From: Bacteriovoracaceae bacterium
GTDB taxonomy: Bacteria; Bdellovibrionota; Bacteriovoracia; Bacteriovoracales; Bacteriovoracaceae
Reading direction: 5' to 3'
DNA length: 64,000 nucleotides
Assembly (NCBI GenBank): GCA_018649885.1
Contig: JABIHA010000018.1
Span: forward strand, 1 to 64,000
Shown here: piece by piece, positions 27,242-52,300 of the stretch
How positions within the stretch are numbered: position 1 is the first letter of the stretch
Layout of the letters: each line of letters opens with the position of its first letter
Made by a program: the position numbers and the translations under genes
The notes under the pieces: generated by a model
What the model saw: only the letters and a program-made list of their open reading frames with translations
Told to the model about the DNA's origin: nothing
Database searches by the model: none

Positions 27242-27245
27242 CAAT

Positions 27246-27947: not shown

Positions 27948-27958
27948 ATGGGGAAAAA

Positions 27959-31762: not shown

Positions 31763-32707
31763 TTATTTTTGTTTAAGAATATTTTCTTTAATTAGCACTA
31801 ATATCTCATTAATATCATTAGGATTCTGAGTGATTGATGGGTGAACCTGCAAAGCTATAGACAACCTTGCATTAAAACAAATTGTTCCAATTCCAATGGG
31901 ATGGGCCTTTGTTACTGGAGGGCAGAAAAACCAATCCCTTTTATCAGTCAAACTGTTCCATACTCCAAGATTGCTAAATGTTCCTACCCAGGAATGATTT
32001 TTTTGATGGTACTTGTTTAGTATCTTTTCCATTCCCGCTATGCCAATTTTTTTACCGAGCATAACTCCCCACCATGAGGCCCAGTGGTAACCAATTTTAA
32101 TTTTTGTTTTAATTTTTGATTGAATTGATTGTACTTTTTCACCATGAGCGATTTTCAAAGAGATATAAGAGGCATGGTTTTTAACTGGACTATCTCTTGT
32201 GATGGGACCTCTCATATTGATTGGAAGTAACCAAAGGTTTTCTTTTGTCCCATTTATAAGTTTTTGATTGATAGCACTATTTATTTTGTGAACAAGGTAG
32301 CTATTTACAGATACCTCATTTTTTTTTGATCTTTCAAGCAGATGAGAAGTCTCTGAGTTTGAAAGCACAAAATAATGAGGGTCGATTTTTGCTCCTAGCT
32401 TTGTTGTGTCTCTATTCTTCCAATTAACAGAAGCCACGCCACTTTCAAGAAAATATGAGATGAATCCCAATAGAAGTCTGAAAATTGATGGTTTGTGATC
32501 TTCTGACAAAGTGGGAAGGTTTTGGTTTTGACCAATGAGAGTGGCAAAAGCACCTATTCCATCAAAGTCCTTGTGAGGCATATGGTGGAATTCAACGGTG
32601 TTAGAATTTGGATCATAACTTCCAAAGGGAATGTGAGTGTACTCACCATTTCTTTCCATTATGGGAAACCATTGTCCAACCCAGTCAATTTTAGTTTGGT
32701 TTTTCAT
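31763..32707 (-). CDS. CoA-dependent acyltransferase / condensation-fold protein
   Basis: HKDFDG (HxxxDG), PINMR, FSNLG; start ATG 32707 in TAATG overlap with radical SAM stop. Confidence 0.65.
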   Translation of the reverse strand: MKNQTKIDWVGQWFPIMERNGEYTHIPFGSYDPNSNTVEFHHMPHKDFDGIGAFATLIGQNQNLPTLSEDHKPSIFRLLLGFISYFLESGVASVNWKNRDTTKLGAKIDPHYFVLSNSETSHLLERSKKNEVSVNSYLVHKINSAINQKLINGTKENLWLLPINMRGPITRDSPVKNHASYISLKIAHGEKVQSIQSKIKTKIKIGYHWASWWGVMLGKKIGIAGMEKILNKYHQKNHSWVGTFSNLGVWNSLTDKRDWFFCPPVTKAHPIGIGTICFNARLSIALQVHPSITQNPNDINEILVLIKENILKQK

Positions 32708-34053
32708 TAGGCTACCGGGGTATTTCCACGGCCAAAATATACCGGAATGATATTTCGTTTTATTTTTATCCAATAAACGAGCGTCTTTCCTAGGTGGTAA
32801 AATTTATTCTTAAATTTTCCAAAGAGGTGCCGCTTTAAAATATTTTTTAACGAATAGAATTCTCTAAGTGTGGCCCAGTAGTATTTAAGAATTTCATCTG
32901 ATGACATTTGAGGATGATCAAAAACAATATATCCTTCTCTAAAATGGGCCAAGTTACTATCAGTGATTTTTCCTGCATCCCAAGCCTGTTTTCCCATAGG
33001 AGTCTTAGGATATGGAGTTGCCGTGAAAAATTCAGCAACAGAGATATTGATATTATCTAAGTAATCGATAGTTTGTTTAAAAACTTCAGGTGTATCTTGA
33101 TCGAGTCCAAACATAATAAGTGCATGTACAGCAATTCCCGAAAGATGGATATTCTCTATTTGGCCTTTAAAAAGACCTGCTTTATTAAATCCTTTTCCAA
33201 CGCCATTTAGATTATCCTGGCTCAAGCTTTCCATTCCAACGGCAAGCCACCTGCAGCCTGCTTTGTAGGCAAGATCTAGAAGTTCAGGATCTTTATGACA
33301 ATTTATGGTTACCTGAGAACCCCAAGTCACCTTAAGTGGAATCATTTCTCTAAATAGTTTCTTTGCAAAATTTGTATCTTCCATTAAGTTGTCATCAGTA
33401 AAAAATATAAATTTTGATTTAGTCGCTTTTATATCTCTAATGATGTGTTCAACTGGACGATGCCGATAAGTATACTGATTAAATTGAATAATTGAGCAGT
33501 ATTCGCATGTAAACGGGCAACCCCTTGTGGCCTGAACAGGGTATACTACAAACCTGTCTTTCTTAATGAGATCATATCGAGGAGTTGGCATTTCACTAAT
33601 ATCAAAGCTTGCTTCGCCTTTATAGACTTTTTTAAGGCAGCCATTTTCAATATCCGAGATCATTTGTTTCCAAACTTTGTCACCTTCACCTAGGCACATG
33701 GAATCGACAACATCTTCGATCATCTCGGGATGCATGGTTGGAAGGTAGCCACCAATGACTACAATTTTTCCTCTCTTTCTAAACTCGGTAGCTATATCTC
33801 TCGCTCTTTCCACTTGCATGACCTGGGCCGAGATGGCGACAACTTGAGCCTCATCGTCAAAGTTAACTTCTTCAAAGCAATCTTCAACAAGTTCCATTTC
33901 AATATCACTTGGTAAGTATGCTGCCAGTAGAGGGAGCGCCATGTGAACAACATTGGCGACACTTAAGCGGTCTATGAATTTATCGGCCCTGACGACACTT
34001 CCACAGTCGTCATAATGTGCTGAATGAACCAATAAAATACGTGAGATTTTCAT
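32707..34053 (-). CDS. Cobalamin-binding radical SAM enzyme
   Basis: N-terminal B12-binding domain (VVIGGYLPT, GEGD), RGCPFTCEYC, FTDDN, GMES, TPYPKTP. Confidence 0.9.
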   Translation of the reverse strand: MKISRILLVHSAHYDDCGSVVRADKFIDRLSVANVVHMALPLLAAYLPSDIEMELVEDCFEEVNFDDEAQVVAISAQVMQVERARDIATEFRKRGKIVVIGGYLPTMHPEMIEDVVDSMCLGEGDKVWKQMISDIENGCLKKVYKGEASFDISEMPTPRYDLIKKDRFVVYPVQATRGCPFTCEYCSIIQFNQYTYRHRPVEHIIRDIKATKSKFIFFTDDNLMEDTNFAKKLFREMIPLKVTWGSQVTINCHKDPELLDLAYKAGCRWLAVGMESLSQDNLNGVGKGFNKAGLFKGQIENIHLSGIAVHALIMFGLDQDTPEVFKQTIDYLDNINISVAEFFTATPYPKTPMGKQAWDAGKITDSNLAHFREGYIVFDHPQMSSDEILKYYWATLREFYSLKNILKRHLFGKFKNKFYHLGKTLVYWIKIKRNIIPVYFGRGNTPVA

Positions 34054-37371: not shown

Positions 37372-39400
37372 TGGGTTTCATTTTTTAATAAATATCAATA
37401 TACTCCTTTTACTTAGTTTCTTAGGCTACAAGGTATTGTTTTACTTCAAAGATTCCTCTGTAAAGTCTGTTAGAAAAACCTTTCTTTTGAACTGTGCACG
37501 ATCAGTTTTATTAATATCACTTGTGCTCCCTGCAATTGTCTTCAATCTAAAACTAGATAAGGATTTACCTTCAATTGAATATTCTCAATTTAACGTCTTG
37601 CCAGAGGGAATTTCACAACCGTTAGTAACAAAAAACCAATTTCAAAAAGAAAAGCTGCTATTTGAAAGCAGTGCTGGCCCAAAGTCTTCACCGCATAATA
37701 TCTATCGCTATTTGTGGATGTTTTTATTGATAGGATTGGGGATTTCTATAATAAAACTAATAGATAGTTTGTTTGAATTAAATAGGCTTTTAAGTTCATC
37801 TGTTCAAGTTCGAAAATTCAAAAACTATAAACTCTATATTTCCCATTTGATCGATACTCCCTTTACATACTATAGTTTTAAAGGAGCTGTTGTAGTCATC
37901 CCCGATAGTCTTATAGCTGATAAAGCTAATTTTTATCTTTCCCTAAGTCATGAAAATCAACACATCAGGCAAAGAGATATTCACTGGTCCCTGGCGTTAG
38001 AGTTTGTTAAATGCTTTTTTTGGTATAACCCAGCAATTTATCTTTGGAATACTCTTTTAAAAGATCTCTCTGAGCTGGCTTGTGACGAAAGAGTTCTAGA
38101 ACGCGGTAGGGTAGATCTTTTTGAATATGGGAACTGCTTAGTGGATGTTGCTGAAAGTGCCTTGAATTCAAAAAATTACTATGTAGTAGGCGCAGCAATG
38201 GCCGGGAATTATCATTCAAATAAATCATTTCTGTTAAGGAGGATCGAAATGTTAAAAACTAAAAATACACTCAAATCGAATTCAACTAAATTCACTGCAA
38301 AAGCGGCAATGCTTTTTAGTATTTTAATCAGCTTATCAGTCCTAACTAGGGTTCAGGCTAGCTTTAGTAAAATTACTACTCACCCTGATATCCAAAAAAT
38401 AGTGGAAAAAACTCTTAAAAAGGGAATGGGCAAGGCATCGGCCAAAAGAGGATTTGCTATTGTGGCCAACCCTAATACGGGTGAGATTGTGGGACTTAGT
38501 CATTTGGAATTAGTAAATCATGAGTTTCGTGAATTGAGTGCCGAAAATTTTCTCAAACAAACATATGAGCCGTATTCACATATAAAGCCCATGATAGCGG
38601 CAATTGCCCTTGAGAAAGGAAATATGCACGAGCAAACAATTCTCGATGCTAGGGGAGGAAAAGTTGTTATTGGAGGCGAGAGCTTCCATGACTGGAAAGA
38701 CCACGGAAAAATTTCCCTTACCAATACAATTGCAAACTCTAGTTTTGTGGGGACTTACAGAATAGCCGAATCCATTAGGGAGTCTGATTTAGTTGCTGGT
38801 CTTAACAATTTTGGTTTTGATAAAGGAAGTAGTGTGGAAGGACTTCCTTTTGCTAAGAGAGGGAAAATTTATTTAGGAACAGGAGAGAGAAGTAAATACA
38901 ATCTGGCATTCTTATCAAATGGCATAGGGGCCATCAAGGTTTCACCTCTAGAGGTTTTGCAAGCTTACTCTAGTATTGCCAATGGTGGAAAATTGCTGAA
39001 ACCTGTAGCTTTTGGAAATGGTAGCGTAAAACCTGAATTAATTCGAAATACTATAGGGCATGAAACAGCTTCGAGAATGAAAGATATACTTTTAAGAACA
39101 ATGACCCAGGGAACGGGAAAGTGGTCACAAAGCTCTAGCTACACAATTGCAGGAAAAACAGCAAGTGGATTTGTATCAAAAGCTATAAGCAGTGATGACA
39201 AACATGCTAAAGCTGATCGGGGCCTATTTATAGGATTTGCCCCCTTTAAGTCTCCAAAGCTCATCGCTTTTGTAATTATTGACCACCCCAAAGGGCCTGC
39301 TCATGGAAGCAAGCATGCAGCTCCGCTAGTCAGATCAATACTAAACCTGTCCTTAAAAAAAATGAGTGTTAAGGTTGATCATAGGTCATCTTCGAATTAA
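37364..39400 (+). CDS. BlaR1-like M56 metallopeptidase fused to a PBP transpeptidase-type domain
   Basis: TM segments, HENQH, FWYNP, ELACD, RRIEM; C-terminal NPNTGEI, EPYSHIK, AGKTAS; start likely 37364. Confidence 0.85.
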   Translation: MSSGFHFLININILLLLSFLGYKVLFYFKDSSVKSVRKTFLLNCARSVLLISLVLPAIVFNLKLDKDLPSIEYSQFNVLPEGISQPLVTKNQFQKEKLLFESSAGPKSSPHNIYRYLWMFLLIGLGISIIKLIDSLFELNRLLSSSVQVRKFKNYKLYISHLIDTPFTYYSFKGAVVVIPDSLIADKANFYLSLSHENQHIRQRDIHWSLALEFVKCFFWYNPAIYLWNTLLKDLSELACDERVLERGRVDLFEYGNCLVDVAESALNSKNYYVVGAAMAGNYHSNKSFLLRRIEMLKTKNTLKSNSTKFTAKAAMLFSILISLSVLTRVQASFSKITTHPDIQKIVEKTLKKGMGKASAKRGFAIVANPNTGEIVGLSHLELVNHEFRELSAENFLKQTYEPYSHIKPMIAAIALEKGNMHEQTILDARGGKVVIGGESFHDWKDHGKISLTNTIANSSFVGTYRIAESIRESDLVAGLNNFGFDKGSSVEGLPFAKRGKIYLGTGERSKYNLAFLSNGIGAIKVSPLEVLQAYSSIANGGKLLKPVAFGNGSVKPELIRNTIGHETASRMKDILLRTMTQGTGKWSQSSSYTIAGKTASGFVSKAISSDDKHAKADRGLFIGFAPFKSPKLIAFVIIDHPKGPAHGSKHAAPLVRSILNLSLKKMSVKVDHRSSSN

Positions 39401-39627: not shown

Positions 39628-40818
39628 CTAATCATCACGATCAACTTGCTTTTGATGTTTGTCTTTAACCATTGATAGGTAGCAAATTTTCTGACTTGAT
39701 TTATCGACATCACAATTGTCATTCGCTGACTCACAGTCAACAATGAGTTTTACTCGACATTTATGAAGGTTTCCTGCTGTTCTTTTAAGTATGGCAGATG
39801 CTTTACGTTTTCCAATCCCTTTTAATTCAGTGAGTGAGGTTTTACTACATCCTCCTGACTCCCATCTTTTAGTGAAGAGACCTTTTCTTGTTTCTTGAGT
39901 GTGTCTAATATTTTTGACAGTATAATTTGAGGGGCAACTTTTAGATAGATTATAGTTAGTATGGAAAAAAGCTTGAGGTTTAGTTTCCTTCCAACCACTT
40001 TTGACTGTAGTAGAATCTCCACCTTTGCAATTGACACTACTATTTTGAGTGATATTGGTACAAACTTCTTTGAATCTATATTTTGTACCATGTTTATTAA
40101 TCACGATTGAATTGAGATTATTTATCTCGATTAGCTTAGTGGATATTTTATTAATAGTAACTTCATTGAAATCACCATACATATTAGTACATTTACCATC
40201 TTGCATATTAAACTCACCATCCATCGATGTACAAACAGATTCCTCGATATCATTTAGTGAGCTACAACCCAGGTATGAGGACTCATCGTCAGAAATACCT
40301 AGTGTAATTGGAAATTCTAGTTTCTTAAAACTTTCATTCTTACCAACAATAAATTTAGCATTCAGCACTAGGGTTGCTGATTCAGAACCATCTGGTGCAT
40401 AACTATCTTCGGGAACTACTATGGCACTTGCTATCTCAGTTCCACGGTAGTCGTTACTCCATCCTTCATCTGGTTCAGCTTCCTTCATTTCATCAGGGAG
40501 CTCTTCTTCGTCAAACACGAGTACCTCTCCGCCTAAAATAATATAGGGAAGGCTATAGCTTTCTTCTCCAATATCTTGACCGCCCATAATCTGAGAGATC
40601 CCTGTTTCTTCACATGAAGAAGAGTTGAATAATGAATTCATACGATTAAAAAGATTGGCCTTTTCAATACTTGCTTGCATTCTTGTTGTAGTCTTATTTC
40701 CCTCATCACTGATTTTCATAACTGTGAGTGTAAGGCCTGAAACAATTGCAGCCGCAATTGTGGCCTGTAAAATACTAGTTCCACGAGCATTGTTAATTAA
40801 AAATAGTTTCTTACTCAT
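39628..40818 (-). CDS. Prepilin-like (class III signal) secreted protein with Cys-rich C-terminus and HhH-like motif
   Basis: NNARG|TSILQATIAAAIVSGLTL; LTELKGIGKRKASAIL; start MSKKLF at 40818. Confidence 0.55.
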   Translation of the reverse strand: MSKKLFLINNARGTSILQATIAAAIVSGLTLTVMKISDEGNKTTTRMQASIEKANLFNRMNSLFNSSSCEETGISQIMGGQDIGEESYSLPYIILGGEVLVFDEEELPDEMKEAEPDEGWSNDYRGTEIASAIVVPEDSYAPDGSESATLVLNAKFIVGKNESFKKLEFPITLGISDDESSYLGCSSLNDIEESVCTSMDGEFNMQDGKCTNMYGDFNEVTINKISTKLIEINNLNSIVINKHGTKYRFKEVCTNITQNSSVNCKGGDSTTVKSGWKETKPQAFFHTNYNLSKSCPSNYTVKNIRHTQETRKGLFTKRWESGGCSKTSLTELKGIGKRKASAILKRTAGNLHKCRVKLIVDCESANDNCDVDKSSQKICYLSMVKDKHQKQVDRDD

Positions 40819-41029
40819 TTGGAAATCCCCCAATCGTCTTTATCAGTTTTAGATATACCTTGTTTGCTTTATTCAACTAACCCTAGTCTTAAAGGCATAT
40901 CGACAAATAAAAATTATAAGTTGAGTTCAAAAAATGGGCAGAAAAATTAAAATTAAATCCATAAGCACTTGTATTAATAAGACTTCTTGTGAGATTAAGT
41001 GGTTTTTATTTAGCAAATAATTATTGGCA

Positions 41030-41803
41030 TTATTTAGAAATAGAGGCCAGGGGCCTGATTAGGATAGAAGATAAGATATCAGCACCTTGCTGGCTTAAGT
41101 GGATAGTATCGATAAAGTAATCAAAACCTCTCTCTTTTGCCATTTGATCGAAGCTTTTTCCAAGAATAAAGTGGGCATATCCATTAATAAAACCAGGCTC
41201 AAGATAATTCAGAGGAAAGGGGAAGGAGAATTCTAGTGGACTTTGATCCATTAGCTTTGAAAATTCACTGTGAAAATCAATTAAACTAATTTGGTCTTTT
41301 TTAGAAATATCTTTCAGTAGCTGATTGTACTTTGAGATTTGGGTGTTTCGAATACTCGTTTTTTCTTCTCTTAATGGGGGAATGGTAATTAAAGTGATAT
41401 TTGATGTGAGCTGTCTGAGGTTTTGAATGACCTTTTCGACATTGAGCACGGCCAGGTCTATGTCCATATTTTGGTCGATATCATTTGTACCAATCAATAT
41501 AAAAATTTGATCATCTTTCTTTAATTCAATAGTTTCAATTTTTTTTAGTAAACCAGCTGTTGTAAGCCCATTTACTCCAAAGTTGAGGATATCTTTGTTT
41601 GAATATTCGCCATTTTTTTTAAGGGGGCTGATAAAACTTCCACTGATAGTGGCCTTTGTTAAGCTATCTCCTAAAAAAACTACTGCTCCTTCGCTCGTTA
41701 GGCGCTGATTATCGAAGGGCCTGAAAATTTGAAAAATAGTATAGAAGACAGTAAATATGATACTGCAAGTTACCACTAAAAAAAATAGGCTAATTTTTAG
41801 CAT
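41030..41803 (-). CDS. Membrane-anchored SGNH/GDSL hydrolase
   Basis: N-terminal TM, GDSLT, GVNG, IGTND, DTIH blocks. Confidence 0.88.
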   Translation of the reverse strand: MLKISLFFLVVTCSIIFTVFYTIFQIFRPFDNQRLTSEGAVVFLGDSLTKATISGSFISPLKKNGEYSNKDILNFGVNGLTTAGLLKKIETIELKKDDQIFILIGTNDIDQNMDIDLAVLNVEKVIQNLRQLTSNITLITIPPLREEKTSIRNTQISKYNQLLKDISKKDQISLIDFHSEFSKLMDQSPLEFSFPFPLNYLEPGFINGYAHFILGKSFDQMAKERGFDYFIDTIHLSQQGADILSSILIRPLASISK

Positions 41804-42171
41804 TGACCAACTAGTTTTACGATTGATCCTACTGAAATATAGTCTTTTAAATCAGCTGGAGTAATTCCAGACTTGTTCTCATCTAAAAGAGGTAAGTATT
41901 CTTTTAATTTAGATAGTGCTTTCTGGGTAAGAGTGCCTTCACTGATGGCCTCTTCTTCTGGCAGATCAATACGTTTTAAAAAATTGAAATCTTCCTTATC
42001 GAGAGTGATATCAAATTTTTCTTCTAGTTGAAACATAATGTCTAGAAAATCTAGAGAGTCCGCTCCAAGATCTACAATCAGTTTAGTATTAGTGGTAATC
42101 TCTTGATCTTCGATAACAAGGGATTCTTTCACACATTCAATCACTCCATCAACGATTTCTTGCTTTTCCAT
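41797..42171 (-). CDS. Acyl carrier protein, extended (124 aa)
   Basis: DLGADSLD phosphopantetheine site, LEEKFDI; AGGAGG RBS. Confidence 0.88.
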   Translation of the reverse strand: MEKQEIVDGVIECVKESLVIEDQEITTNTKLIVDLGADSLDFLDIMFQLEEKFDITLDKEDFNFLKRIDLPEEEAISEGTLTQKALSKLKEYLPLLDENKSGITPADLKDYISVGSIVKLVGQC

Positions 42172-42186
42172 ATTGTCCTCCTAAAA

Positions 42187-42909
42187 CTATATTAATAAGT
42201 ATCCACCATCTACAGGTAAACATACTCCGGTAATCATTTTTGATAAGTCTGAAACTAAAAAAGCGCATGCATTTGCTATATCTTCAGCAGGTATCAATTT
42301 CCCCATGGGAACCATATCTGCAGGGTTCACACCTGTTTGCACAATACTTTTTTCAAGCATCGGGCTCATAACAGGCCCTGGAAGAATTGCGTTTACTCTA
42401 ATGCCTCGTTTGGCGACTTCAGCCGCAAGAGATTTCACTAGTCCTTCTATTCCGGCCTTTGTAGCACTATAGGTGACGTGTCCTCTAGTCATTCTGTGGG
42501 CAGAGACTGATCCCATGTGGATCAAAACACCTGCTCTTTTTCTCATCATGGCCTTAACCGCAAGTTGTGAGATAAAGATACTACCAGTTAGATTGACCTC
42601 AATGAGTTTCCTAGTGTCTTCTTCGCTCATACCAACTAGTGGTGCAGCGCTGTGGACACCACTGCAATTGATGACAGCGTCGATCTTGTCTACATTTTCT
42701 TTATAGAGCTTAAATAGATTTTCAATATTTTCATAACTAGAGATGTCACACTGAAATGAGTTATCAGAAAATTCATTTAACTCACTTGTAAGCTCTCTAT
42801 TATAGGTGACTGATACATTGGCACCAGCTTGTTTGAGTACAACTGCACAGCTTTTACCAATGGCCCCTGAAGCTCCAATTATTAGGATATTTTTTCCAGC
42901 TAGATTCAT
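42187..42909 (-). CDS. fabG: 3-oxoacyl-ACP reductase-like SDR
   Basis: GASGAIG, VNL, YSATK, IRVNAILPG, VDGG. Confidence 0.8.
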   Translation of the reverse strand: MNLAGKNILIIGASGAIGKSCAVVLKQAGANVSVTYNRELTSELNEFSDNSFQCDISSYENIENLFKLYKENVDKIDAVINCSGVHSAAPLVGMSEEDTRKLIEVNLTGSIFISQLAVKAMMRKRAGVLIHMGSVSAHRMTRGHVTYSATKAGIEGLVKSLAAEVAKRGIRVNAILPGPVMSPMLEKSIVQTGVNPADMVPMGKLIPAEDIANACAFLVSDLSKMITGVCLPVDGGYLLI

Positions 42910-44111
42910 TGTGGTCCCCTTTCAATAATCAAAGAAGAGTTCTGTCCACCAAATCCAAAGGAATTTTTGAGGATATATTTAAAATCACCTTTTAAGTTTT
43001 CTTCACGGACATGACAAAGATCGCAGCTTTCATCAACTTCATCGAGATTGAGAGTTTGGTGCAACTCTTGTCTTTTAAAGGCAATCACTGAGGTAACCGT
43101 TTCGATAGCACCTGCTGCTGATATACAGTGTCCTACAAGCGATTTAGTCGCAAATACAGGAGTAGTTTTTGCTTTATCTCCCAGCAAGGTTTTTATAGCA
43201 TATGTTTCTGTAGGATCATTTTTAGGAGTTGCGGTCCCGTGTACAGAGATAGCATCAATATCGGAAATATCTAATCCACTATCATCAAGGGCCCTTTTCA
43301 TAGAGTCATAAGCTCCTCTACCTTCAGGGTGAGGATCACTGACACTGTGGGCGTCAAGACTATTTCCATGACCTACGATGTAACCCAAAACCTTAGCTCC
43401 TCTAGCTATTGCACTAGTTTCAGATTCTAGAACTAAAAATGCAGCTCCTTCTCCAAGTACAAAACCATTTCTATTTTTATCAAATGGTCTTGAAGCCGTT
43501 TTTGGGTTTTCATTATCAGTGGTCATTGCACCAATTCGACAAAAGCCTGCAATACCCATGGGATTGACCATGGAATCAGTTCCGCCGGCCAAGCATATAT
43601 CAAGAGATCCTGATTTGACTTTTTTATAGGCATCTCCAATGGCATCTGTTCCAGCTGCACATGCTGAAATATGAATTGCGGGTGAATGATTGAATCCAAA
43701 TTCATGAGAAATCATATGAGCACATAAATCACTCGGAAAGTTGAGAAATGATATTTCATTTGAAGTTTTTCCATTAAAGCGCACATCAATTAAGTCATCC
43801 ATGGAGAAAAGCTCAAGCCCTATTCCAATGGAAAGTGATGAGTTTGCCTTTTTAATCTGATCTGTGCTGAGGCCACTATTTGAAATCGCCTCACGAGATG
43901 CCTTCAGAGCAAAGTCAACTTTGATATCACGGTAGTTTGCACTGAAATCTTTAACTTCACATGCTATATGAGTTGGAAGCCCAGAAGCATCAAATCTAGT
44001 AATTTCACCTGCGCCAGAGACCCCGTCATAGAGTGATTTTTCAAATGCTTCAATATCATTTCCAATAGGTGTGATGGCCCCAATACCTGTAATACAGACG
44101 CGATTACTCAT
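42906..44111 (-). CDS. fabF: Beta-ketoacyl-ACP synthase (FabF-type)
   Basis: Intact Cys-His-His triad: SACAAG, HGTAT, KSLVGH; SRPFD, GEGA, NSFGFGG. Confidence 0.92.
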   Translation of the reverse strand: MSNRVCITGIGAITPIGNDIEAFEKSLYDGVSGAGEITRFDASGLPTHIACEVKDFSANYRDIKVDFALKASREAISNSGLSTDQIKKANSSLSIGIGLELFSMDDLIDVRFNGKTSNEISFLNFPSDLCAHMISHEFGFNHSPAIHISACAAGTDAIGDAYKKVKSGSLDICLAGGTDSMVNPMGIAGFCRIGAMTTDNENPKTASRPFDKNRNGFVLGEGAAFLVLESETSAIARGAKVLGYIVGHGNSLDAHSVSDPHPEGRGAYDSMKRALDDSGLDISDIDAISVHGTATPKNDPTETYAIKTLLGDKAKTTPVFATKSLVGHCISAAGAIETVTSVIAFKRQELHQTLNLDEVDESCDLCHVREENLKGDFKYILKNSFGFGGQNSSLIIERGPQ

Positions 44112-44964
44112 GTTGAGCCCCTCCTAGTTCAATGGAGATACTTGTTCCAAAGTCAGTGTGGTGATCTATAGTTTCACAGTGGTTTTCTTTTGCACTTTCT
44201 AGCTTTGTGACAATCTCTAGAGAAATTTGGCTACACCCAAGAGGAAGCTCTAGGGTTTTTCCTTGGATTTCACTAATCTTGTTACCAATATCCACTGGCC
44301 TGTAAGACTCTATGACATCTTTTATTTGTAGGCCCAAGTCATCTCTTCTAAGTATCATGACTGACGCTGAATCTATGGGATCCTTGTTTAAGTCGTGGCC
44401 CAAACGTTGGTAGAATTGCCTGACGAGAAAGTTATCTTGATCACAAGCGGATCCAACTATAGCATAGTCAATGATTCCATCTTCCAGATCTTTGATTCCC
44501 TTTTGCAAGCATTGAACCCAGTCCGAAACACCAGAATAAGTCATAAAATACCTTCCGGTGACACCTAAGTTATATGAAGTGTGAAACAAGGCCATATTGG
44601 GAAGACATTTAAAAGTCAGAAGTGGATTCATCGAATTATAAGCAAGATCTGAAAAAACCTTTATATCAAATTTGTTATCAGTAATTGATTTTACACATAA
44701 TTTTTCTAGTGGTGCCTCATCAAATGGCAGAATTCCTACGCATAGATAAATGCCAACTCGGCTGAGATCTTGATCTTCTTCAATTTTTGCCTGCTCCCAT
44801 GACTTGAGAGCGCAAAGGGCCATGAGTTTATCCTGCTTTGACATGAACTTAAAAAGCTTTCTATCTTTTAAAAGCCCCTTGATTTCAGTGTCTAGGCTTT
44901 TCATGGCCAATTGATTTGACTCAAAATCACTTGATATGAAGTTGTATCCGGATTTTATTCTCAT
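44104..44964 (-). CDS. Truncated, catalytically inactive ketosynthase-like protein (chain-length-factor-like)
   Basis: KS N-domain motifs (RVGIYL, NPLLTFKCLPNM, YAIVGS) but no catalytic Cys loop (YSGVSD) and no C-terminal His motifs. Confidence 0.7.
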   Translation of the reverse strand: MRIKSGYNFISSDFESNQLAMKSLDTEIKGLLKDRKLFKFMSKQDKLMALCALKSWEQAKIEEDQDLSRVGIYLCVGILPFDEAPLEKLCVKSITDNKFDIKVFSDLAYNSMNPLLTFKCLPNMALFHTSYNLGVTGRYFMTYSGVSDWVQCLQKGIKDLEDGIIDYAIVGSACDQDNFLVRQFYQRLGHDLNKDPIDSASVMILRRDDLGLQIKDVIESYRPVDIGNKISEIQGKTLELPLGCSQISLEIVTKLESAKENHCETIDHHTDFGTSISIELGGAQHE

Positions 44965-45437
44965 CGATACTCCGGTGGATTTTCAAGTCCTCTAGTCCAT
45001 ACTTTATATACATCTTGTCTTTGTTTTTTTACATTTTCTGAATCAATGGCCATTAAGCTAAATGTGATAATTCCTGAGGCCCTTTGCTCGCCATTACAGC
45101 TGGCCTCCACTTTAATTTTTGCAGCATCGGTGAGTTGTGACATAAAAGTTGCCTTATATGTTAAGACATCACCAGGAATTGAAAATCCTCTGAACTTCAT
45201 TTTATCAACTTGGCAAAGGAGGGCCCTTTTAATATTTTCATCACTTGTATTTACTGTGGCCTCAAGGAGGAAACCCGCAAGTTGAGCAAGTCCTTCAATA
45301 ATCATAGCTCCTGGAAGCACGGGAAAATCAGGAAAGTGATCATGCATTATTGATTCAGTATAAGAGATGGCCTTAAGACCTGTTGCAGTTTCACCCAAGT
45401 GAATTTCTGTAATTCTATCTAGTAAGAAATATCTCAT
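44961..45437 (-). CDS. fabZ: 3-hydroxyacyl-ACP dehydratase
   Basis: LLDRI, HFPDFPVLPGAMIIEGLAQ, KFR..PGD. Confidence 0.88.
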   Translation of the reverse strand: MRYFLLDRITEIHLGETATGLKAISYTESIMHDHFPDFPVLPGAMIIEGLAQLAGFLLEATVNTSDENIKRALLCQVDKMKFRGFSIPGDVLTYKATFMSQLTDAAKIKVEASCNGEQRASGIITFSLMAIDSENVKKQRQDVYKVWTRGLENPPEYR

Positions 45438-46123
45438 TATAGGCCCCCATCGAGGACAAAGTTTTGTCCTGTTATATATGTATTTTCAGAAACGATCCAA
45501 GAAATTGTCTTGGCCATATCTTTATTTGTCCCGAATCGTTTTAAGGAACAGTGTTTAAGGTAAGATTTTTTACTTTTCTGATCGATAATTTTTCCAGCCC
45601 CATCTTCTAGAAGTCCAGGATCTACACAATTGATTAGGACACCATCACGACCCAGTTGCTTGGACAGAGATTGAACCAGCCCTTTCAATGTCCCTTTTGA
45701 TAGTGCATACTCTGGTGCCACATCAATGGATTTAGTTCCAACAAGAGATCCTACGAAAATAATATTCGAAGGTCGCTTCAATAGCTTCTTTGAGTTGAGT
45801 ATTCCAATAAGATCGTATGGACCTACACTTTGAACAAGATTTGATTTTGTAAATATTTGGTAATTTAATTTTGAGCGGTCTTCATCAACATTTAACTCAC
45901 GATCAATACCAGCGGCAAATACAATGGCATCAACAGGTCTTGTGATCTTTTCACATAATGCAGCAATTGATTTTGGGTCGGTTAAATCGCAGTGTTCCCC
46001 ATCATCTTGAATTTTATTTTGGTGGTAACTGCCAATAGTCTCAAAACCTAGTTCTCGTAAGCTCTTTTGAACTTCACTACCAATGTAGCCACTAGCACCA
46101 ATAATTAAGGCAAGTCTTTTCAT
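45437..46123 (-). CDS. Divergent SDR (FabG-like)
   Basis: GASGYIG, YALSK, NCVDPG, GQNFVLDGG. Confidence 0.78.
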   Translation of the reverse strand: MKRLALIIGASGYIGSEVQKSLRELGFETIGSYHQNKIQDDGEHCDLTDPKSIAALCEKITRPVDAIVFAAGIDRELNVDEDRSKLNYQIFTKSNLVQSVGPYDLIGILNSKKLLKRPSNIIFVGSLVGTKSIDVAPEYALSKGTLKGLVQSLSKQLGRDGVLINCVDPGLLEDGAGKIIDQKSKKSYLKHCSLKRFGTNKDMAKTISWIVSENTYITGQNFVLDGGL

Positions 46124-46872
46124 TACAGCCCCCCATCAGCGATAAGGGTTGAGCCGCTCATATAGCCACTTAAATCAGATAATAAAAATGATGTGACCTT
46201 GGCAATTTCACTAAAACTTCCAGGTCTTCCAAGAGCTGTTTGCTCAAAGAATTCTTCCTTTTTTTCTTCAGGAATTCCCTTTGCTACACCGCCATCTAAT
46301 ATTCCTGGGGCCAAGCAGTTGACTCTTATTTGGTATTTACCAATCTCTTTACAAAGAGATTCAGAAAATCCTTTAAGCGCTGCTTTTGTGGCACAGTAGT
46401 CTATGGGAGCTGCTAATATTCTTACACCAGCTAACGAGCTGACATTTACAATAGAGCCTGATTTTTTTCTAATCATTGGACGAATAATTGATTTAGTCGC
46501 TGCAAATGCACTCTTTAAGTTAATTCTTGTGGTGCGATCCCAATCTTCTTCATCGAGTAGTGCTAGCGGATAAAATTCACTTACTCCCAAATTATTGACA
46601 AGACCATCGATTTTTCCCCACTTCTCCATTACCAATTCAGAAAGTTTCTTATAACCCTCTAATGAGTCAGCTTCAACCTGCATACAGATATGTTCTCTTC
46701 CAGTGTTGTCAGCGATTTCATCAAGAAGCTCATTTGCAATTTTCTCATTTTTACCATAAGTAAACGCAATATGGGCCCCTCTACTACTGAGGAGTTTGAC
46801 TATCTCACATCCGAGACCGCGCGATCCGCCGGTTACGATAATGACTTTGTCCATATGTAAGTTTTCAAACAT
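46123..46872 (-). CDS. fabG: 3-oxoacyl-ACP reductase-like SDR
   Basis: TGGSRGLG, LVNN, NVSS, YCATK, IRVNCLAPG. Confidence 0.83.
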   Translation of the reverse strand: MFENLHMDKVIIVTGGSRGLGCEIVKLLSSRGAHIAFTYGKNEKIANELLDEIADNTGREHICMQVEADSLEGYKKLSELVMEKWGKIDGLVNNLGVSEFYPLALLDEEDWDRTTRINLKSAFAATKSIIRPMIRKKSGSIVNVSSLAGVRILAAPIDYCATKAALKGFSESLCKEIGKYQIRVNCLAPGILDGGVAKGIPEEKKEEFFEQTALGRPGSFSEIAKVTSFLLSDLSGYMSGSTLIADGGL

Positions 46873-46874
46873 AA

Positions 46875-47642
46875 TTAAGCTCCCATAATATGACCACCAG
46901 AATCAATATAATGGGTTCCTCCTGTAATATTTTTTGCAAGATCAGAGCAAAGATAGGTAGCAAAATTTCCAACATCAGTTATAGTTGTTGGCTCCCCAAG
47001 AGGAGTTCTTTCTTTGACAATCTCCATAGTTTTTTTAAAATTTGGAAATATTGAAGCAGCTAGCGTTTTTACTGGCCCAGGTGAAAGAGTGTTAACTCTA
47101 ATTTTATGAGCTCCAAGTTCATCGGCAAGATACTTTACAGATGACTCAAGAGCCGCTTTTGCTGGTCCCATGATTTTGTAACCTGTCATAACTTTTTGTG
47201 AACCGTAAAATGAAAGTGTTAATATTGATCCGCCGTTGTCTTTCATGAAGGGAGTGGATCTATTTGCAATATCTATTAGTGAAAAAACACTTATTTCCAT
47301 TGTTTGCGAGAAATCTTCCTTAGAAGTTTTGGTGAAGTCATTTTCAAGACAGTTCGTGGGCGTAAATGCTAGGGAATGGACCACTATATCTACTGAGCCC
47401 CATTTTTTTTCAACTTCACTAAATACAAGATCAAGGTCAGTTGAATCTGTAACATCACATTTAACAACAAAGCTGGCATTCAACTCGTTATCAACTTTTT
47501 GTACTCTTGAAAGAAGTCTTTCATTTTGATAAGTAAAAGCAATGTCAGCACCGGCTTCTTTAAGAGACCTTGCAATTCCATAAGCTATGCTTCTGTTATT
47601 GGCTATTCCAAAAATGAGTGCTTTTTTGCCGCTTAAATTCAT
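46875..47642 (-). CDS. fabI: Enoyl-ACP reductase
   Basis: GIANNRSIAYGIA, HSLAF, YKIMGPAKAALE, GPVKTLAAS. Confidence 0.92.
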   Translation of the reverse strand: MNLSGKKALIFGIANNRSIAYGIARSLKEAGADIAFTYQNERLLSRVQKVDNELNASFVVKCDVTDSTDLDLVFSEVEKKWGSVDIVVHSLAFTPTNCLENDFTKTSKEDFSQTMEISVFSLIDIANRSTPFMKDNGGSILTLSFYGSQKVMTGYKIMGPAKAALESSVKYLADELGAHKIRVNTLSPGPVKTLAASIFPNFKKTMEIVKERTPLGEPTTITDVGNFATYLCSDLAKNITGGTHYIDSGGHIMGA

Positions 47643-49159
47643 GGTTCAAGCTCCGTTCTCTCTGGCACTTTCACACCATCAAGCTTTAGTCTTTGATCTT
47701 TAAAACGGTGAATATTATTGTATGCACAGCCAGGCATTAGCCTTCCATCAGGAAGAGCATAGTGGGTGCAACATTTTCTAATTCTCGCAACATCAAAATC
47801 AAATTCATCCATAAAGGCGTGAATAAAAATGGCCTTAACTTTTGTTTCTGAGAGCTTCCACAACTGGTCTTGCTCTAGTGTACCGGCTTGCTGATATTCT
47901 TTTAAAATTGCTTTAAGTGATTTGAGAAGCCCCTCTGAGTCAACTGTTACTGATTGAGCTGACCAAAGGTTATAGATTGCATCTTGAATTAATTCCGATG
48001 CCTTATTATCAACATCCATGATCGCCCTATTGGTGAGAGCATCCATATAGACCGCTAAATCTCCAAAGTGAGTAAGAGGGACAAATTTCTTATCATCAAC
48101 TTTTAATACATAGGAAGCCGTATAGCATGATGGATGAGAACAAGGGATAGGTAGGAAATCTTCTTTTTCAAGCCAAGTGGATTGTTCTCCTATTAGCTTA
48201 TGAATATCATATTGAGTTAGCTTTTGTAATGGATCAGATGGAAATGATGTCCCACCTGCTCCAGTATAGGCAGCTGGTTGAAGAGTCACTGAAGTTATAA
48301 AATCTTTTGATAATGCAAAATCTATAATCTTACCTATTTCATGGTCATTATAACCTTTGGCAATTGTGGGAACTAATATTGTAGGGATATCAAACTCTTC
48401 ACAATGCTCAAGGCACTTCATTTTCAACTCTAAAAGGTTTTCACCTCTAATGGCGTGATAGTTTTTGTCTTCCATGGAATCAAATTGCAAAGACAGATAT
48501 AGACCTGCTTCTTTGAATTTTTTAGCAAACTCTCTATTTCTAGCAATTCTTAGTCCATGGGATGAAACCAAAACTCTTTTGATGTTTTTCTGGCTTGTGG
48601 CATACTCTGCTAATTTGAAAAAATCTGGATGAAGAGTTGGCTCTCCTCCACTTAAGAGCATTAATTCTAAACTGCCTTCTTTTTCAAGTAATCCATCAGT
48701 AACCTTTTTAAAGTCTTCTAAACTCATATCGTAATTATTTTCATTCCATACAATGCATATAGGGCATTTGAGATCACACTTATTACTTATCTCTACGATA
48801 GGTGAGCAGGTGTGTTGCTCATGATCCTCACACAGACCACAATCATCAGGACAGCCTTTTTCTACAGGTGTTGACCACTGCTTTGGCTTGGTGCCTGGTT
48901 TTGTGTAAGAAAGTGATTTCACCCAGTAGTTGATGTCTGAGCTTAATAATGCCTCAAATTCACCGTGGATCATGCACCTTTTTGAAAGTACAACTCGGCC
49001 ATCTCTGAAGATTACCTTTGCTTGAATTGTTCTTCTGCATTTTGGACAGATTGATTGTGTAGCGGTGAAAAATGCACCCTTACGATCTTCTTTGTCTTTA
49101 AACGTGTTATCACAGCAGTCCATTGAATTACTCCGTATTTTAGCTAAATTTAACTTCAA
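47639..49159 (-). CDS. Radical SAM enzyme of the tetraether synthase (Tes/GDGT-MAS) family
   Basis: TQSICPKC...KRCMIHG, GCPDDCGLCEDH, CDLKCPIC, SGGEPT, PCSHPSC, DVARIRKCCTHYALPDGRLMPGCAYN; alternative start ATG 49123. Confidence 0.8.
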   Translation of the reverse strand: MKLNLAKIRSNSMDCCDNTFKDKEDRKGAFFTATQSICPKCRRTIQAKVIFRDGRVVLSKRCMIHGEFEALLSSDINYWVKSLSYTKPGTKPKQWSTPVEKGCPDDCGLCEDHEQHTCSPIVEISNKCDLKCPICIVWNENNYDMSLEDFKKVTDGLLEKEGSLELMLLSGGEPTLHPDFFKLAEYATSQKNIKRVLVSSHGLRIARNREFAKKFKEAGLYLSLQFDSMEDKNYHAIRGENLLELKMKCLEHCEEFDIPTILVPTIAKGYNDHEIGKIIDFALSKDFITSVTLQPAAYTGAGGTSFPSDPLQKLTQYDIHKLIGEQSTWLEKEDFLPIPCSHPSCYTASYVLKVDDKKFVPLTHFGDLAVYMDALTNRAIMDVDNKASELIQDAIYNLWSAQSVTVDSEGLLKSLKAILKEYQQAGTLEQDQLWKLSETKVKAIFIHAFMDEFDFDVARIRKCCTHYALPDGRLMPGCAYNNIHRFKDQRLKLDGVKVPERTELEP

Positions 49160-49320: not shown

Positions 49321-52300
49321 CTATTCAAAGAGGGATTCAAAGTCACTCATAGTGAGTCTTCCAGTGAAATATTGGTCATCATTATCTGCCAATAAATCTT
49401 GAAATAGCTCACGTTTGGCGTCTTGAAGTAAGAGTACTTTCTCTTCTACCGAGTCTTTGATAATAGGTCGGTATACGGTCAAGGTATTTTTTTGACCAAT
49501 CCTGTGGGCCCTATCAACGGCCTGTGATTCCACTGCAGGATTCCACCAAGGGTCCATCAAAAAGATATAGCTAGCTTGAGGAAGGTTTAGCCCCACGCCC
49601 CCAGCTTTTAGTGAAATAACAAAAATTGATGTCTTACCAGCTTGAAATTCTTCAATTTCTTTTTGACGTTTTTTAAAGTTTTGGCTGCCATCAATTCTAG
49701 AATATTTCCAATGTTTTTCTATAATCGCCTTTTGGATAATATCTAGATAGGAAGTAAATTGTGAAAATACTAGGACCTGGTGTCCTTCAGCTACAATTTG
49801 CTCTAGGTTTTCCATCAAAAAATCAACTTTTGTGGAAATATGATTAGCCGATTTTTGCCAAAGACACATTTGCCTTAGCTCTAAGAGGCCTTTTAAAATT
49901 TCGCCATACTTTTTCTTGGGGATGACATTTTTAATTCTTTCTTTGATTCGTGTTAAACCATTTTTATATTTATCTCTTTCAAGCTCACTAAAATTTAGAT
50001 AGACAACATTTTCAATTTTGTCAGGCAAGTCAGTTAGAACCTGAGCTTTCGTTCTTCTCAAAATAAAAGGTCTTGCTGTTTTCTTAGCCAGAAGTCTAGA
50101 CTTCTTAGTCGAGGTGGTCCTAATGAATTGGAGATCTCCCCATACGCCAGGTATAGATAAATCTAATATATTATAAAATTCAGAGAGGTCATTTTCTACT
50201 GGTGTACCAGTCAAACAGATTCTAAATCCAGCATTAATCTTCCTGGCGGCCATTGCCCCAAGGGACCTTATATTTTTTAGGTGTTGAACCTCATCTAGGA
50301 TAAATATATCGAAGAACTCTTCTTGGAAAATATTATCAGCTTCTTTTTTCATCACACCATAACTGGTGATAATAACTTTTGTATCTTTTGGATATTGTCT
50401 ATCTCCACCGTAATAAACAGAGTAATCAAGTGTCGAAAATTTGAGAATTTCTTTTTCCCAATTGAGAAGAATTGATACTGGGCATACTATAAGAACTTTT
50501 TTGATTTTATGGATGATACTTTCTAAGAACATTATTGTCTGAAGCGTTTTACCAAGACCCATATCATCTGCCAGACAGGCACCCAATTTATTTTCATGTA
50601 AAAATCGTAGCCAATTATAGCCAGTTACTTGGTAGTTTCGAGCAATATCTTTAAATATAGGAGGGGTATCATATTCAGGCATTTTATCAAGAGTGAGAAG
50701 TCTCTCACATAGTGCTTTTTCTTCGTCTGTTAGAATTCCATCAATGCCGAGTCTTTTAAGTTCGAAGAGCTCAAAAATCCTTGCTCGATTAAACGGAACT
50801 AGAAAATTCTTACCTTTCGTCTCTGAATTTTGACTCTCTTCGCTTTTTTCAAATTTAGTATATTTCTTCATGAATCTTAATAGATCTTTTTGATCCTTAT
50901 TCAGAAGTACTAAACCTGTTTTGGTGAGAGCGTATCCTTTGTCAGAATCGGCTCTTTTTATGATTTCAAAATCCTCTTCACTCATTTTGAGCTCTAGGTC
51001 AAACCAATCTAGCTTGAAATTTCTTCTTTCAAAGCGAATAGATGAATTCCATGTGCTGAGCTCTAATTTATCGTAGTAAATAGTGACACCGTAAGGAGTG
51101 ACTTTTTCAAAGAAACTTGAAATACCATCTAGCAAACTTCCTGTGGGAATTTCCAACTGAAGGGTATGATCTTCACTAATATACTTTGAGTAGCGAAATG
51201 AATTGACCCCAAAATTTGAAAAAATGGATTCAAAAATCAGTTTAAAAAATTGGCCATCGTATTTTATAAGTTTCTCATCGACATGATGATAAGAATAAAA
51301 TGTTTTGTCATCCAAGAGGTTCTTACAAAGTGATGTAACGGTTGCCCTTTCATTGGAAGTTCGCAAAACACTTGTATAGGGGTCAGACCTATTTTCAATA
51401 CTTTCAAAGAATTTCTCTACAAACTCTGTCGCATCAATTTTTCTTTTAAATGTAGCAAGGTAGCCACCTTCAAAACAAAAGAGCTTGAGTCCCTTGTGAA
51501 AGGGAAGTATTAGATCGTTGTCGTCATGGAGAACTATTTCTACTGAGAGATGATTTTTTCTTGTGGCCTTTTGGATGCTAATTCTTGTGTGGGTGTCTTT
51601 GATTTCTAATTCATTTAATTTCTTTCCAGAAACTTTTAAATCCAGAATATCCATTTCAACTAGATTGCTGGTTACACTTAGGTAATCTTCAATATCATGA
51701 GGTGAATTTTCGGATCTTAATTTTCTAATAAAATCTTTTAGCTCAATTGGCAGGTGATATGACTTCCCACCTTTCCAGTCATAGAGGTAGAGATTTTCAA
51801 AAACTGTTATTTCCCCGACTTCTTCTCCATCAGCTAATTGATAGGAAAACTTCCTATTCCAGTAGGGGACTCCACCAATTTGATCTTCTTTTAAATTTAC
51901 AACCAATTTTCCTTCAAACTTAACGGGAAGAGGAAATTGAATTGATTTAGAACGATCTGCTAACCAGTAAAATAGTGATGAATAAGTGGAATTAGGAGGT
52001 GCCCCTTTAAGTCTTTGAGCCGAATCAATTATTGTGCCGTATTCATTGATAGAGACGGCACTGAGATCAGAAAGTGATGTGGGAACATTGAGATTAATTT
52101 GAGTACCAAGGGACTTGAGCCTGAATTCAATAAATAGTGCAAGAGCATGGATGCAATGATGATCTGCTCTCCACTCTCTACAGCTACAATAAGAGCGCAT
52201 AGGACCTTCTGCACTTCCTTCCAGCCGTTTCTTATAAGTCAGCCGGCTTTCGGCAATAGGCGAGTCTTTTATTATGCCTGAAATAATATAAAACTCATCC

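Follow-up and report, generated by a model that had tools for sequence, protein, structure and literature searches.

A window of 64,000 nucleotides from a Bacteriovoracaceae bacterium (GCA_018649885.1, contig JABIHA010000018.1, positions 1-64,000 of the forward strand) was analysed and found to contain an operon of ten minus-strand genes at 41030-49159. It is headed by an enzyme of the radical S-adenosylmethionine (SAM) kind, from the superfamily of the archaeal glycerol dialkyl glycerol tetraether (GDGT) synthase GDGT-MAS, or Tes, and continues with genes resembling those of a type II fatty acid synthase (FAS). The locus joins known kinds of system, being a type II FAS/polyketide synthase (PKS)-like cluster with radical SAM tailoring, and it is probably an accessory, horizontally spread pathway for a specialised lipid or lipid-like metabolite. 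That the pathway is a dedicated one, with radical tailoring of a chain bound to its own carrier protein, is given a probability of about 0.9. The further step, that the Tes-like enzyme forms a carbon-carbon bond on the carrier-bound or newly released chain, is given a little less than an even chance. A full-text literature search returned no paper tying a Tes-like gene to ketosynthase (KS) or acyl carrier protein (ACP) genes; supplements lay outside its scope, and some of these, such as the similarity network of PMC9433317 or the Tes trees of PMC8941075, might show such neighbourhoods. The same search yielded no characterised pathway with this layout, as had been supposed in the initial annotation of the stretch.

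Across 41030-49159 the list of open reading frames (ORFs) holds ten minus-strand ORFs and no rival long ORFs (Table 1). Pfam and NCBIfam assign these, in order of transcription, to a radical SAM enzyme with an HMPTM-type zinc ribbon, FabI, a FabG-like short-chain dehydrogenase/reductase (SDR1), a divergent 228-aa enzyme of the SDR type (SDR2), a FabZ-like dehydratase, a 286-aa protein with a sub-threshold ketoacyl-synthase match (termed chain length factor (CLF)-like below), a FabF-like KS, a further FabG-like reductase (SDR3), an ACP and a GDSL/SGNH hydrolase. All of the gene families given in the initial annotation hold, and so does the tight packing of the genes that it described. Junctions read in the sequence consist of ATGA stop/start overlaps at 47639, 44961 and 42906 and TAATG junctions at 46123 and 45437, with the CLF-like and KS genes sharing 8 nt (ATGAGTAA) and the ACP and SGNH genes sharing 7 nt (ATGCTAA). 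The remaining gaps measure 2 nt (FabI-SDR1) and 15 nt (SDR3-ACP), and an AGGAGG precedes the ACP start. One detail required revision: the start of the radical SAM gene is most likely the ATG at 49123 rather than the TTG at 49159, since the resulting 494 aa is the length of the database record P0001 and its relatives. No gene for FabD, FabH or a phosphopantetheinyl transferase (PPTase) was detected by Pfam or NCBIfam among the ten, in agreement with the first reading. The G+C content of the operon (0.381) is close to that of the window (0.375), and a simple scan for promoter and terminator signals of the operon gave no excess over shuffled sequence. The boundaries of the operon are clean, as its flanks are unrelated to it (an SNF2 helicase and RpoD upstream, a pilin-like protein downstream).

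The radical SAM enzyme comprises a rubredoxin-type N-terminal ribbon, an N-terminal auxiliary cluster motif, the CX3CX2C motif and a C-terminal cluster domain. Comparison with the GDGT-MAS structure 7TOL (7tol_A) gave an E value of 3.7e-72 over almost the whole length of the protein, which confirms the Tes-like character first ascribed to it. Using the metal-site motifs as defined in the figure legends of PMC9433317, the rubredoxin-type CX2C...CX2H site (C26, C29, C50, H53), the N-terminal C-C-C-H cluster (C91, C95, C98, H101) and the CX3CX2C motif (C116, C120, C123) were all found to be conserved in the clade of the window protein. Three further cysteines (C333, C451, C466) are conserved in all aligned groups; the available text of PMC9433317 does not name the cysteine ligands of the C-terminal cluster. 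The 25 FAS-linked sequences of the alignment designated 'a' keep these motifs together with the three C-terminal Cys columns, as in Tes, with two minor departures. All four metal sites of GDGT-MAS thus appear to be kept in the window enzyme. A role as a pterin methyltransferase, which is an old annotation of MJ0619 still carried by some sources, was rejected: PMC9433317 reports a failure to corroborate it, and the gene context here is lipid-like.

The KS of the operon possesses a catalytic triad (C151, H291, H328) that is invariant among 24 KS sequences. Beside it stands a 286-aa protein which had been described in the initial annotation as a dead KS. Instead of a decayed gene, alignment, fold and complex prediction point to a conserved CLF-type partner of the KS. 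The protein is conserved in 27 related loci (25 sequences were aligned) and can be aligned by hhalign to the N-terminal half of the KS (probability 72%), where its Asn132 sits opposite the catalytic Cys; the half carrying the two His residues is lacking. Its AlphaFold2 model, with a mean predicted local distance difference test (pLDDT) score of 81.9, adopts a thiolase fold, and its best Foldseek matches are the actinorhodin KS/CLF, AntDE, FabF and the ishigamide CLF. A search of PDB sequences with the CLF-like protein gave no match at E <= 1, so its identity rests on profile comparison and fold. Prediction of the complex of KS and CLF-like protein scored 0.94 against 0.00 for the best control, with a partner pLDDT of at least 84 and agreement between runs in at least 88% of contacts; the mark applied to this score is reached by 116 of 157 solved complexes and by 2 of 215 mismatched pairs. 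Since solved KS/CLF complexes exist, this result may reflect likeness or memory and is not proof of binding. The two genes overlap by 4-8 nt in the window and in those relatives whose coordinates were compared. An active Cys-His-His KS beside a Cys-less homologous partner is the arrangement of KS/CLF heterodimers, and type II PKS and aryl polyene systems (actinorhodin, 1TQY; AntDE, 6SMO; ishigamide, 6KXD; ApeO-ApeC) share with the operon this pair, a discrete ACP, a ketoreductase, a dehydratase and translational coupling. They differ from it in that the window partner has an Asn and is without most of the C-terminal half, in the presence of FabI here, and in that those systems include no radical SAM enzymes for tailoring. 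In aromatic CLFs the position of the catalytic Cys is occupied by Gln.

Every FAS-like enzyme of the operon scores under the NCBIfam cut-offs of the housekeeping families, and the operon ACP lies under every NCBIfam ACP cut-off (49.6 versus 70.45). ACPs of 126-131 aa, similarly long, are also encoded in the related loci L001, L009 and L063. The SGNH protein possesses the GDS, GxND and DxxH blocks and a hydrophobic N-terminus, as read by eye in the translation. Elsewhere in the genome, which measures 5.45 Mb and is 92% complete, a complete housekeeping set was identified on contig C76 (rpmF-fabH-fabD-fabG-acpP-fabF), with a FabF score of 576 bits and with FabF, FabH, FabD and ACP all exceeding their cut-offs. 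Because this set exists, the operon can be regarded as a dedicated accessory pathway, and the earlier view of it as a special FAS with its own ACP is borne out. More FabI-like genes occur on contigs C54 and C21, and a second full-length FabZ-like gene on contig C130.

The linkage between the Tes-like gene and the FAS-like genes is kept over large evolutionary distances. One genome per species was scanned, giving 187 relatives, of which the best 80 loci were kept; homologues were counted by tblastn with the window proteins (Table 1), and ORF calls in high-GC relatives gave merged or antisense ORFs. SDR1 accompanies the Tes-like gene more constantly than any other gene does. Of the 55 related loci that span 14 kb or more, 48 have a KS no further than 10 kb from the Tes-like gene, and 50 have at least one of KS, ACP, FabZ and CLF there. 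In three of the five exceptions (L052, L053 and L071) the downstream sequence amounts to only about 3 kb. Judged by record title, the loci belong to at least eight phyla or groups, namely Bdellovibrionota, Myxococcota (including complete Sorangium genomes), Acidobacteriota, Planctomycetota, Verrucomicrobiota, Elusimicrobiota, Rokubacteria and Proteobacteria-labelled metagenome-assembled genomes (MAGs), and 28 of them carry two or three Tes-like genes in tandem. Within its own phylum the cluster is rare: of 300 other genomes sampled, 1 has a homologue, and none of the 67 of the family does. This patchy distribution fits an accessory, laterally spread cluster.

From these comparisons the core of the family appears to consist of the Tes-like enzyme, an SDR, a KS with its CLF-like partner, a FabZ-like dehydratase and an extended ACP, with the ten-gene order, FabI and the SGNH protein as apparently local features of this genome. 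The synteny expected in the initial annotation is therefore upheld for the linkage of the radical SAM enzyme to KS, ACP and FabZ across phyla and not for the ten-gene set as a whole. In the nearest named relative (L001, 77%) the block from FabI to ACP is in the same order, and the Tes-like gene lies beyond an MMPL-type transporter. Versions of the cluster in Polyangia, Planctomycetota and Elusimicrobia additionally contain a PigE-like class III aminotransferase, a small radical SAM enzyme, a BluB-like nitroreductase, a flavin monooxygenase and transporters. The aminotransferase, a 363-aa radical SAM enzyme and the nitroreductase are found wedged between SDR3 and ACP (L019, 13215-15963 and 19352-19981; L049, 5907-7478; L037, 13435-14061), and the gene content of these versions suggests amine-containing products. 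Additions in the Acidobacteria-type version are one more KS-like gene and a condensation-like protein of larger size.

The lipid system extends past 41030-49159. A search of the genome by tblastn with accessory proteins of the relatives located a pair of genes at 31763-34053, encoding a B12-binding-type (class B-like) radical SAM enzyme and a condensation-type protein. These conserved partner genes had been missed in the initial annotation. Their stop and start share 1 nt according to the ORF coordinates. The pair is situated 7 kb beyond the operon, with about 13.6 kb between the B12-type gene and the Tes-like gene, and is separated from the operon by five genes (an ORF of no known family, GNAT, BlaI, BlaR1 and a pilin-like gene). 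In Bdellovibrionales relatives, the gene directly after the Tes-like gene encodes a protein 59-66% identical to the B12-type enzyme of the window, and the gene for the condensation-type protein comes next after it. Homologues with 44-66% identity directly follow the Tes-like gene in 30 of the 80 loci, four of these 30 being shortened by contig ends, and all of the Tes-like genes adjoining a B12-type gene that were included in the tree described below fall in the subclade of the window protein. A natural fusion of the B12-type and condensation-type proteins (761 aa) is encoded in a Bdellovibrionales MAG (L055, 11365-13650).

The condensation-type protein has no Pfam family by its own sequence. 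Its HxxxDG motif is invariant at H45, D49 and G50 in 15 sequences of the family. Matches to PapA_C are weak: ten of the 15 members gave one, with a best E value of 2.6e-6, and the window protein stands at E 0.025, far under threshold. Comparison of the family profile with PDB sequences gave only chance matches near E 1. The AlphaFold2 model (pLDDT 91.7) had as its best Foldseek matches the E, C and Cy domains of non-ribosomal peptide synthetases (NRPSs), PapA5 and the enacyloxin release domain, with a probability of 1.00 to the NRPS C/E/Cy domains and PapA5. The motif, the weak PapA_C matches and the fold together identify the 314-aa protein as a compact condensation-type acyltransferase. It resembles PapA5 and other stand-alone condensation acyltransferases in its HxxxDG motif, its fold and the presumed role of passing carrier-bound acyl chains on to an alcohol or amine, and differs in its length (314 aa versus about 420) and in the fusion to a B12-type radical SAM enzyme in the one relative.

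Table 1. Genes of the operon and of the partner pair, with their basis of assignment and the number of related loci (of 80) holding a homologue by tblastn
Feature	Position	Strand	Basis	Related loci
GDGT-MAS/Tes-superfamily radical SAM, 494 aa	47639..49123	-	PF04055 and PF23545 (Zn_ribbon_HMPTM); neither Tes nor TrsS clade	
FabI-type enoyl-ACP reductase, extra copy	46875..47642	-	PF13561 269 bits; best NCBIfam FabI model 310.9 vs cut-off 337	2/80
SDR1, FabG-like ketoreductase	46123..46872	-	Pfam/NCBIfam; YxxxK read by eye	69/80
SDR2, divergent 228-aa short-chain dehydrogenase	45437..46123	-	PF13561 89.8 bits	14/80
FabZ-like 3-hydroxyacyl-ACP dehydratase, 158 aa	44961..45437	-	PF07977 60.2 bits; TIGR01750 98 vs cut-off 155	46/80
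Short CLF-like KS partner, 286 aa	44104..44964	-	sub-threshold PF00109, E 5e-4	27/80
FabF-like KS	42906..44111	-	TIGR03150 397 bits vs cut-off 493.75; best PDB match B. subtilis FabF, 8e-88	56/80
SDR3, FabG-like reductase	42187..42909	-	Pfam/NCBIfam	20/80
Dedicated ACP, 124 aa	41797..42171	-	PF00550 39.4 bits at residues 9-62; DSL site; C-terminal extension of about 45 aa	38/80
SGNH/GDSL hydrolase or acyltransferase with N-terminal membrane anchor	41030..41803	-	PF13472 65.2 bits vs gathering 32.9	0/80
B12-binding-type (class B-like) radical SAM	32707..34053	-	PF04055 58.6 bits; PF02310 28.2, sub-threshold	
Compact condensation-superfamily acyltransferase, 314 aa	31763..32707	-	invariant HxxxDG; own sequence without Pfam family	

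In the pathway proposed for this locus, malonyl units would be supplied by the housekeeping FabD, and the CLF-like subunit, with its Asn in place of the KS Cys, would pair with the KS and either prime the chain or set its length. A reduced or partly reduced chain would be built on the dedicated ACP, with the reductases and the dehydratase processing it. The Tes-like enzyme would then take a hydrogen from an unactivated chain carbon, after which its C-terminal [4Fe-4S] cluster would serve in forming a carbon-carbon bond, giving a ring within one chain or a tail-to-tail link between two. The B12-type radical SAM enzyme would make a second radical modification, most simply a C-methylation. The chain may leave its carrier by acyl transfer through the condensation-type protein, by hydrolysis or transfer through the SGNH protein at the membrane, or by both. 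Carbon-carbon chemistry is proposed because the enzyme is homologous to the only characterised member of its superfamily and every cofactor site appears to be kept. Products of the kind suggested in the initial annotation (diacids, membrane-spanning or macrocyclic acids) are possible. A wider and more tentative form of this proposal, which we consider somewhat less probable than carbon-carbon bond formation as such, is that a large bacterial branch of the Tes superfamily, with His for the labile Met, acts on the chains of its own KS/CLF-ACP set rather than on finished membrane lipids. On this view the operon would by itself suffice to make carbocyclic or tail-to-tail linked (dicarboxylic, possibly membrane-spanning) fatty acyl products, with the B12 radical SAM enzyme preparing or decorating the chain end.

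Several observations weigh against carbon-carbon coupling of carrier-bound chains, the first of them being the placement of the Tes-like enzyme itself. It scores 303.7 bits, in two stretches, with the NCBIfam model for Tes (NF045702, cut-off 450), and 303.6 bits with that for TrsS (NF045646, cut-off 490). The superfamily was sampled as the best 150 representatives, of which the 100 full-length ones were labelled by NCBIfam; 16 pass the Tes model and 14 the TrsS model, and a further one scores 489.9 with the latter. The tree, which has 140 rows including 39 sequences translated from the related loci, was built with IQ-TREE in quick mode (LG+G4, midpoint rooted; support values are SH-aLRT only). 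The 16 Tes-passing representatives form one clade (98) and TrsS another (99), and the two together with two unlabelled representatives make up one clade of 33 rows (95). The window protein was placed in a separate clade of 65 rows (99), which holds two paralogous groups, both adjoining FAS-like genes, plus unlabelled representatives. A split with a support of 99 divides the tree into a half of 77 rows with the window protein and a half of 63 rows with Tes and TrsS. The initial annotation, which had itself named a position outside the Tes clade as a ground for giving up its proposal, is not sustained on this point, and the window protein is better described, from score and tree, as a relative of Tes than as a Tes. 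TrsS, which is annotated with a different, non-lipid context, is nearer to Tes than the window clade is, and for this reason function is not transferable by homology. Two representatives of the TrsS clade (P0212 and P0228) are fused to a DVU_1556-type methyltransferase or a DVU_1551-type NTP transferase, fusions which make the context of this sister clade of Tes look quite different and non-lipid.

Further points of the same tendency concern the catalytic cluster, the substrate and the gene content. The labile Met439 of GDGT-MAS aligns with His435 in the window enzyme. Among the FAS-linked sequences, all 25 of group 'a' and 14 of the 15 of group 'b' have His here, against Met in 14 of 16 Tes sequences and in all 15 of TrsS, so that the chemistry of the cluster may differ from that in GDGT-MAS. 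GDGT-MAS works on whole phospholipids and not on carrier-bound chains (PMC9433317). Two related loci (L014 and L033), both full 21-kb loci, have no FAS core gene in reach. The accessory genes vary widely between clades, and the family therefore probably makes several products. The PPTase family PF01648 was not found with this query in the 92%-complete genome, nor is there an in-cluster PPTase. Taken as a whole, the window enzyme is like GDGT-MAS/Tes (MJ0619; 7TOL, 7TOM) in domain order, full-length homology, conserved metal-site columns and a lipid-related context, and differs from it, besides clade, model score and the His residue, in being bacterial and linked to KS, CLF and ACP genes rather than to isoprenoid ether lipid genes.

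Part of this evidence lends itself to another explanation, in which the Tes-like enzyme carries out a different radical tailoring of the carrier-bound chain without carbon-carbon coupling, be it sulfur insertion from the auxiliary cluster in the manner of LipA or BioB, methylation, desaturation or hydroxylation. The mechanism of GDGT-MAS, as described in the text of PMC9433317, runs via a bond between a substrate carbon and a cluster sulfur, and could end as a thiol if no second radical followed. The clade-specific change from Met to His at the catalytic cluster would suit such an outcome, as would the placement of the enzyme apart from the Tes clade, to which TrsS, itself of different context, stands nearer. 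Against this, the only characterised member of the superfamily forms carbon-carbon bonds, the ten operon genes include none for a sulfur carrier or for cluster repair, and a methylation function is already offered by the B12-type partner. We consider this explanation unlikely, though the strongest of the alternatives.

The operon could also supply a fatty acid that first enters phospholipids, with the Tes-like enzyme coupling lipid-bound tails in the membrane, as GDGT-MAS and Mss do, to give diabolic-acid-like membrane-spanning or macrocyclic lipids. Whole phospholipids, those of E. coli included, are bound by GDGT-MAS (PMC9433317), and bacterial Tes homologues have been proposed as enzymes for branched GDGTs (brGDGTs) or membrane-spanning lipids (PMC8941075, PMC11868695); the clade is present in Acidobacteriota families, and the SGNH protein appears, by eye, to be membrane-anchored. 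A reaction of the proposed kind is described for Mss of Thermotoga and Thermoanaerobacter, a radical SAM enzyme which makes membrane-spanning lipids by linking a pair of fatty acyl tails (PMC13159169, PMC13459092). Mss is described as only remotely related to Tes, and no dedicated FAS set is reported for it in the available text of PMC13159169. According to the same source, Tes homologues occur in only 3 of 14 acidobacteria producing iso-diabolic acid and in no other producers. An enzyme acting in the membrane would need no private set of KS, CLF and ACP, yet the link to such a set is conserved. The PigE-like aminotransferase, nitroreductase and monooxygenase of many relatives point to small-molecule products, and the rarity of the cluster in its own phylum is unlike a core membrane trait. 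Coupling within the membrane is accordingly rated as improbable.

Still less probable is a pathway of the pigment or polyene type, resembling aryl polyene synthesis or the ladderane 'cluster I', in which the radical enzymes would cyclise an unsaturated chain to a polycyclic hydrocarbon tail. The nearest analogue of the operon in layout is cluster I of anammox bacteria (KustE3603-3608: amxACP, amxFabZ, amxFabF2/amxFabFmut, a phytoene-dehydrogenase-like protein and a B12 radical SAM enzyme), which likewise combines a private ACP, a variant FabZ, a B12-type radical SAM enzyme and an active KS with a catalytically altered homologue, a FabF and a mutated FabF forming a KS/CLF-like heterodimer (preprint 10.64898/2026.05.19.726425). 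Its product chemistry is described as unsolved (10.64898/2026.05.19.726425; PMC13459092). No Tes-like enzyme is described for cluster I in the available text of these sources; the window host is not an anammox bacterium, and its CLF-like protein is a truncated one of 286 aa. Aryl polyene clusters are known to contain short CLF partners (PMC8358021), but the CLF-like protein showed no similarity by BLASTP to the short CLF of the aryl-polyene-like cluster in its own genome (E 5.4). Most relatives are without an enoyl reductase (FabI in 2 of 80 loci), as a polyene route would allow, whereas the version in this genome includes FabI. The B12-type enzyme gives a weak match to the TIGR04072 model 'rSAM_ladder_B12', at 97 bits against a cut-off of 360; the HpnJ model gives 103 bits against a cut-off of 577. 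The amine-oxidase/phytoene-desaturase family is absent from the ten genes and from 31763-34053, and canonical FabF and FabZ are closer matches to the KS and FabZ of the operon than the presumed anammox PDB chains are (chain identity was taken from molecule names). Clusters termed 'ladderane-like' by antiSMASH have been listed in non-anammox phyla, with no function given in the available text (PMC9902471).

A reading of the FAS-like genes as a spare or second fatty acid synthase, with the radical SAM gene as an unrelated neighbour, is close to refuted: the individual enzymes do resemble FabF, FabG, FabZ and FabI, but all of them score under the housekeeping cut-offs, the genome has a complete housekeeping set in another place, stop codons overlap with start codons, and the linkage of the radical SAM gene to the KS is kept across phyla.

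The genes flanking the operon are of other kinds. Directly upstream of it, and downstream of rpoD, lies a gene for a 1008-aa SNF2-family helicase (49321-52347, minus strand) that weakly matches a SWIM zinc finger; among NCBIfam models it scores best with 'pilus expression-regulating Snf2 family helicase', far under the cut-off. On the other side, orf401 (39628-40833, minus strand) encodes a 401-aa protein without a Pfam family, whose nearest Atlas clusters are Bdellovibrionota hypothetical proteins, partly with an N_methyl pilin motif (score 0.93). The product is probably a minor pilin, and orf401 was rejected as a member of the operon, being of pilin type and having a homologue by tblastn in 0 of the 80 related loci. 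Between the operon and the B12-type/condensation-type pair sits a putative beta-lactam-sensing pair (36976-39400, plus strand), consisting of a BlaI-type repressor followed by a 690-aa BlaR1-like protein with an M56 peptidase and a penicillin-binding transpeptidase domain. A run of sugar- and nucleotide-activation genes occupies 25178-30917 (plus strand) and encodes a 687-aa uridine-kinase/PRK-domain protein whose membrane part weakly resembles a glycosyltransferase, a HAD hydrolase, a double NTP-transferase, a GT2 glycosyltransferase and the product of an unassigned gene.

A third FAS/PKS-like cluster of the genome is located on contig C21 (L086, 1-19000). It carries genes for a KS and a 244-aa short partner, FabI, a flavin halogenase-like protein, a LolA-like protein, a CrtI-family desaturase and an ACP, together with an FlxB-like reductase, two more KS genes, a polysaccharide deacetylase and acyltransferases, and looks like an aryl polyene or flexirubin-type pigment cluster. 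DNA near-identical to 41030-49159 was detected in marine and seawater metagenome runs, with at least half of the sampled words present in eight runs, two of which may be the source. Among the listed runs with matching DNA there was no RNA run. A scan of metagenomes for close relatives returned only identical (100%) sequence and distant radical SAM genes.

The role of the bacterial relatives of tetraether synthase is acknowledged as an open question in the literature (PMC9433317, PMC8941075 and the 2026 review PMC13459092). In the available texts, bacterial Tes homologues are mentioned as bioinformatic matches without an assigned role and are proposed for brGDGT synthesis (PMC8941075, PMC9433317, PMC11868695, PMC13459092), and they have already been used, without testing, to infer the producers of brGDGT palaeoclimate biomarkers (PMC11868695). 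The present analysis shows, for at least eight phyla, that a whole clade of these homologues is linked with a private assembly line based on a carrier protein, and counting 'Tes' in metagenomes by simple homology lumps together at least three clades that differ in context. The gene set is of an expressible size (about 8 kb here plus the 2.3-kb partner pair), and cultivable carriers such as Sorangium exist. If carrier-bound chains are indeed coupled or cyclised by the Tes-like enzyme, radical carbon-carbon coupling would be extended to fatty acid and polyketide biosynthesis. If the enzymes of this branch act on the chains of their own KS/CLF-ACP sets, the operon would represent the first carrier-protein-dependent pathway of Csp3-Csp3 coupling, and many of the 'Tes homologues' counted as metagenomic markers of brGDGTs would do something else.

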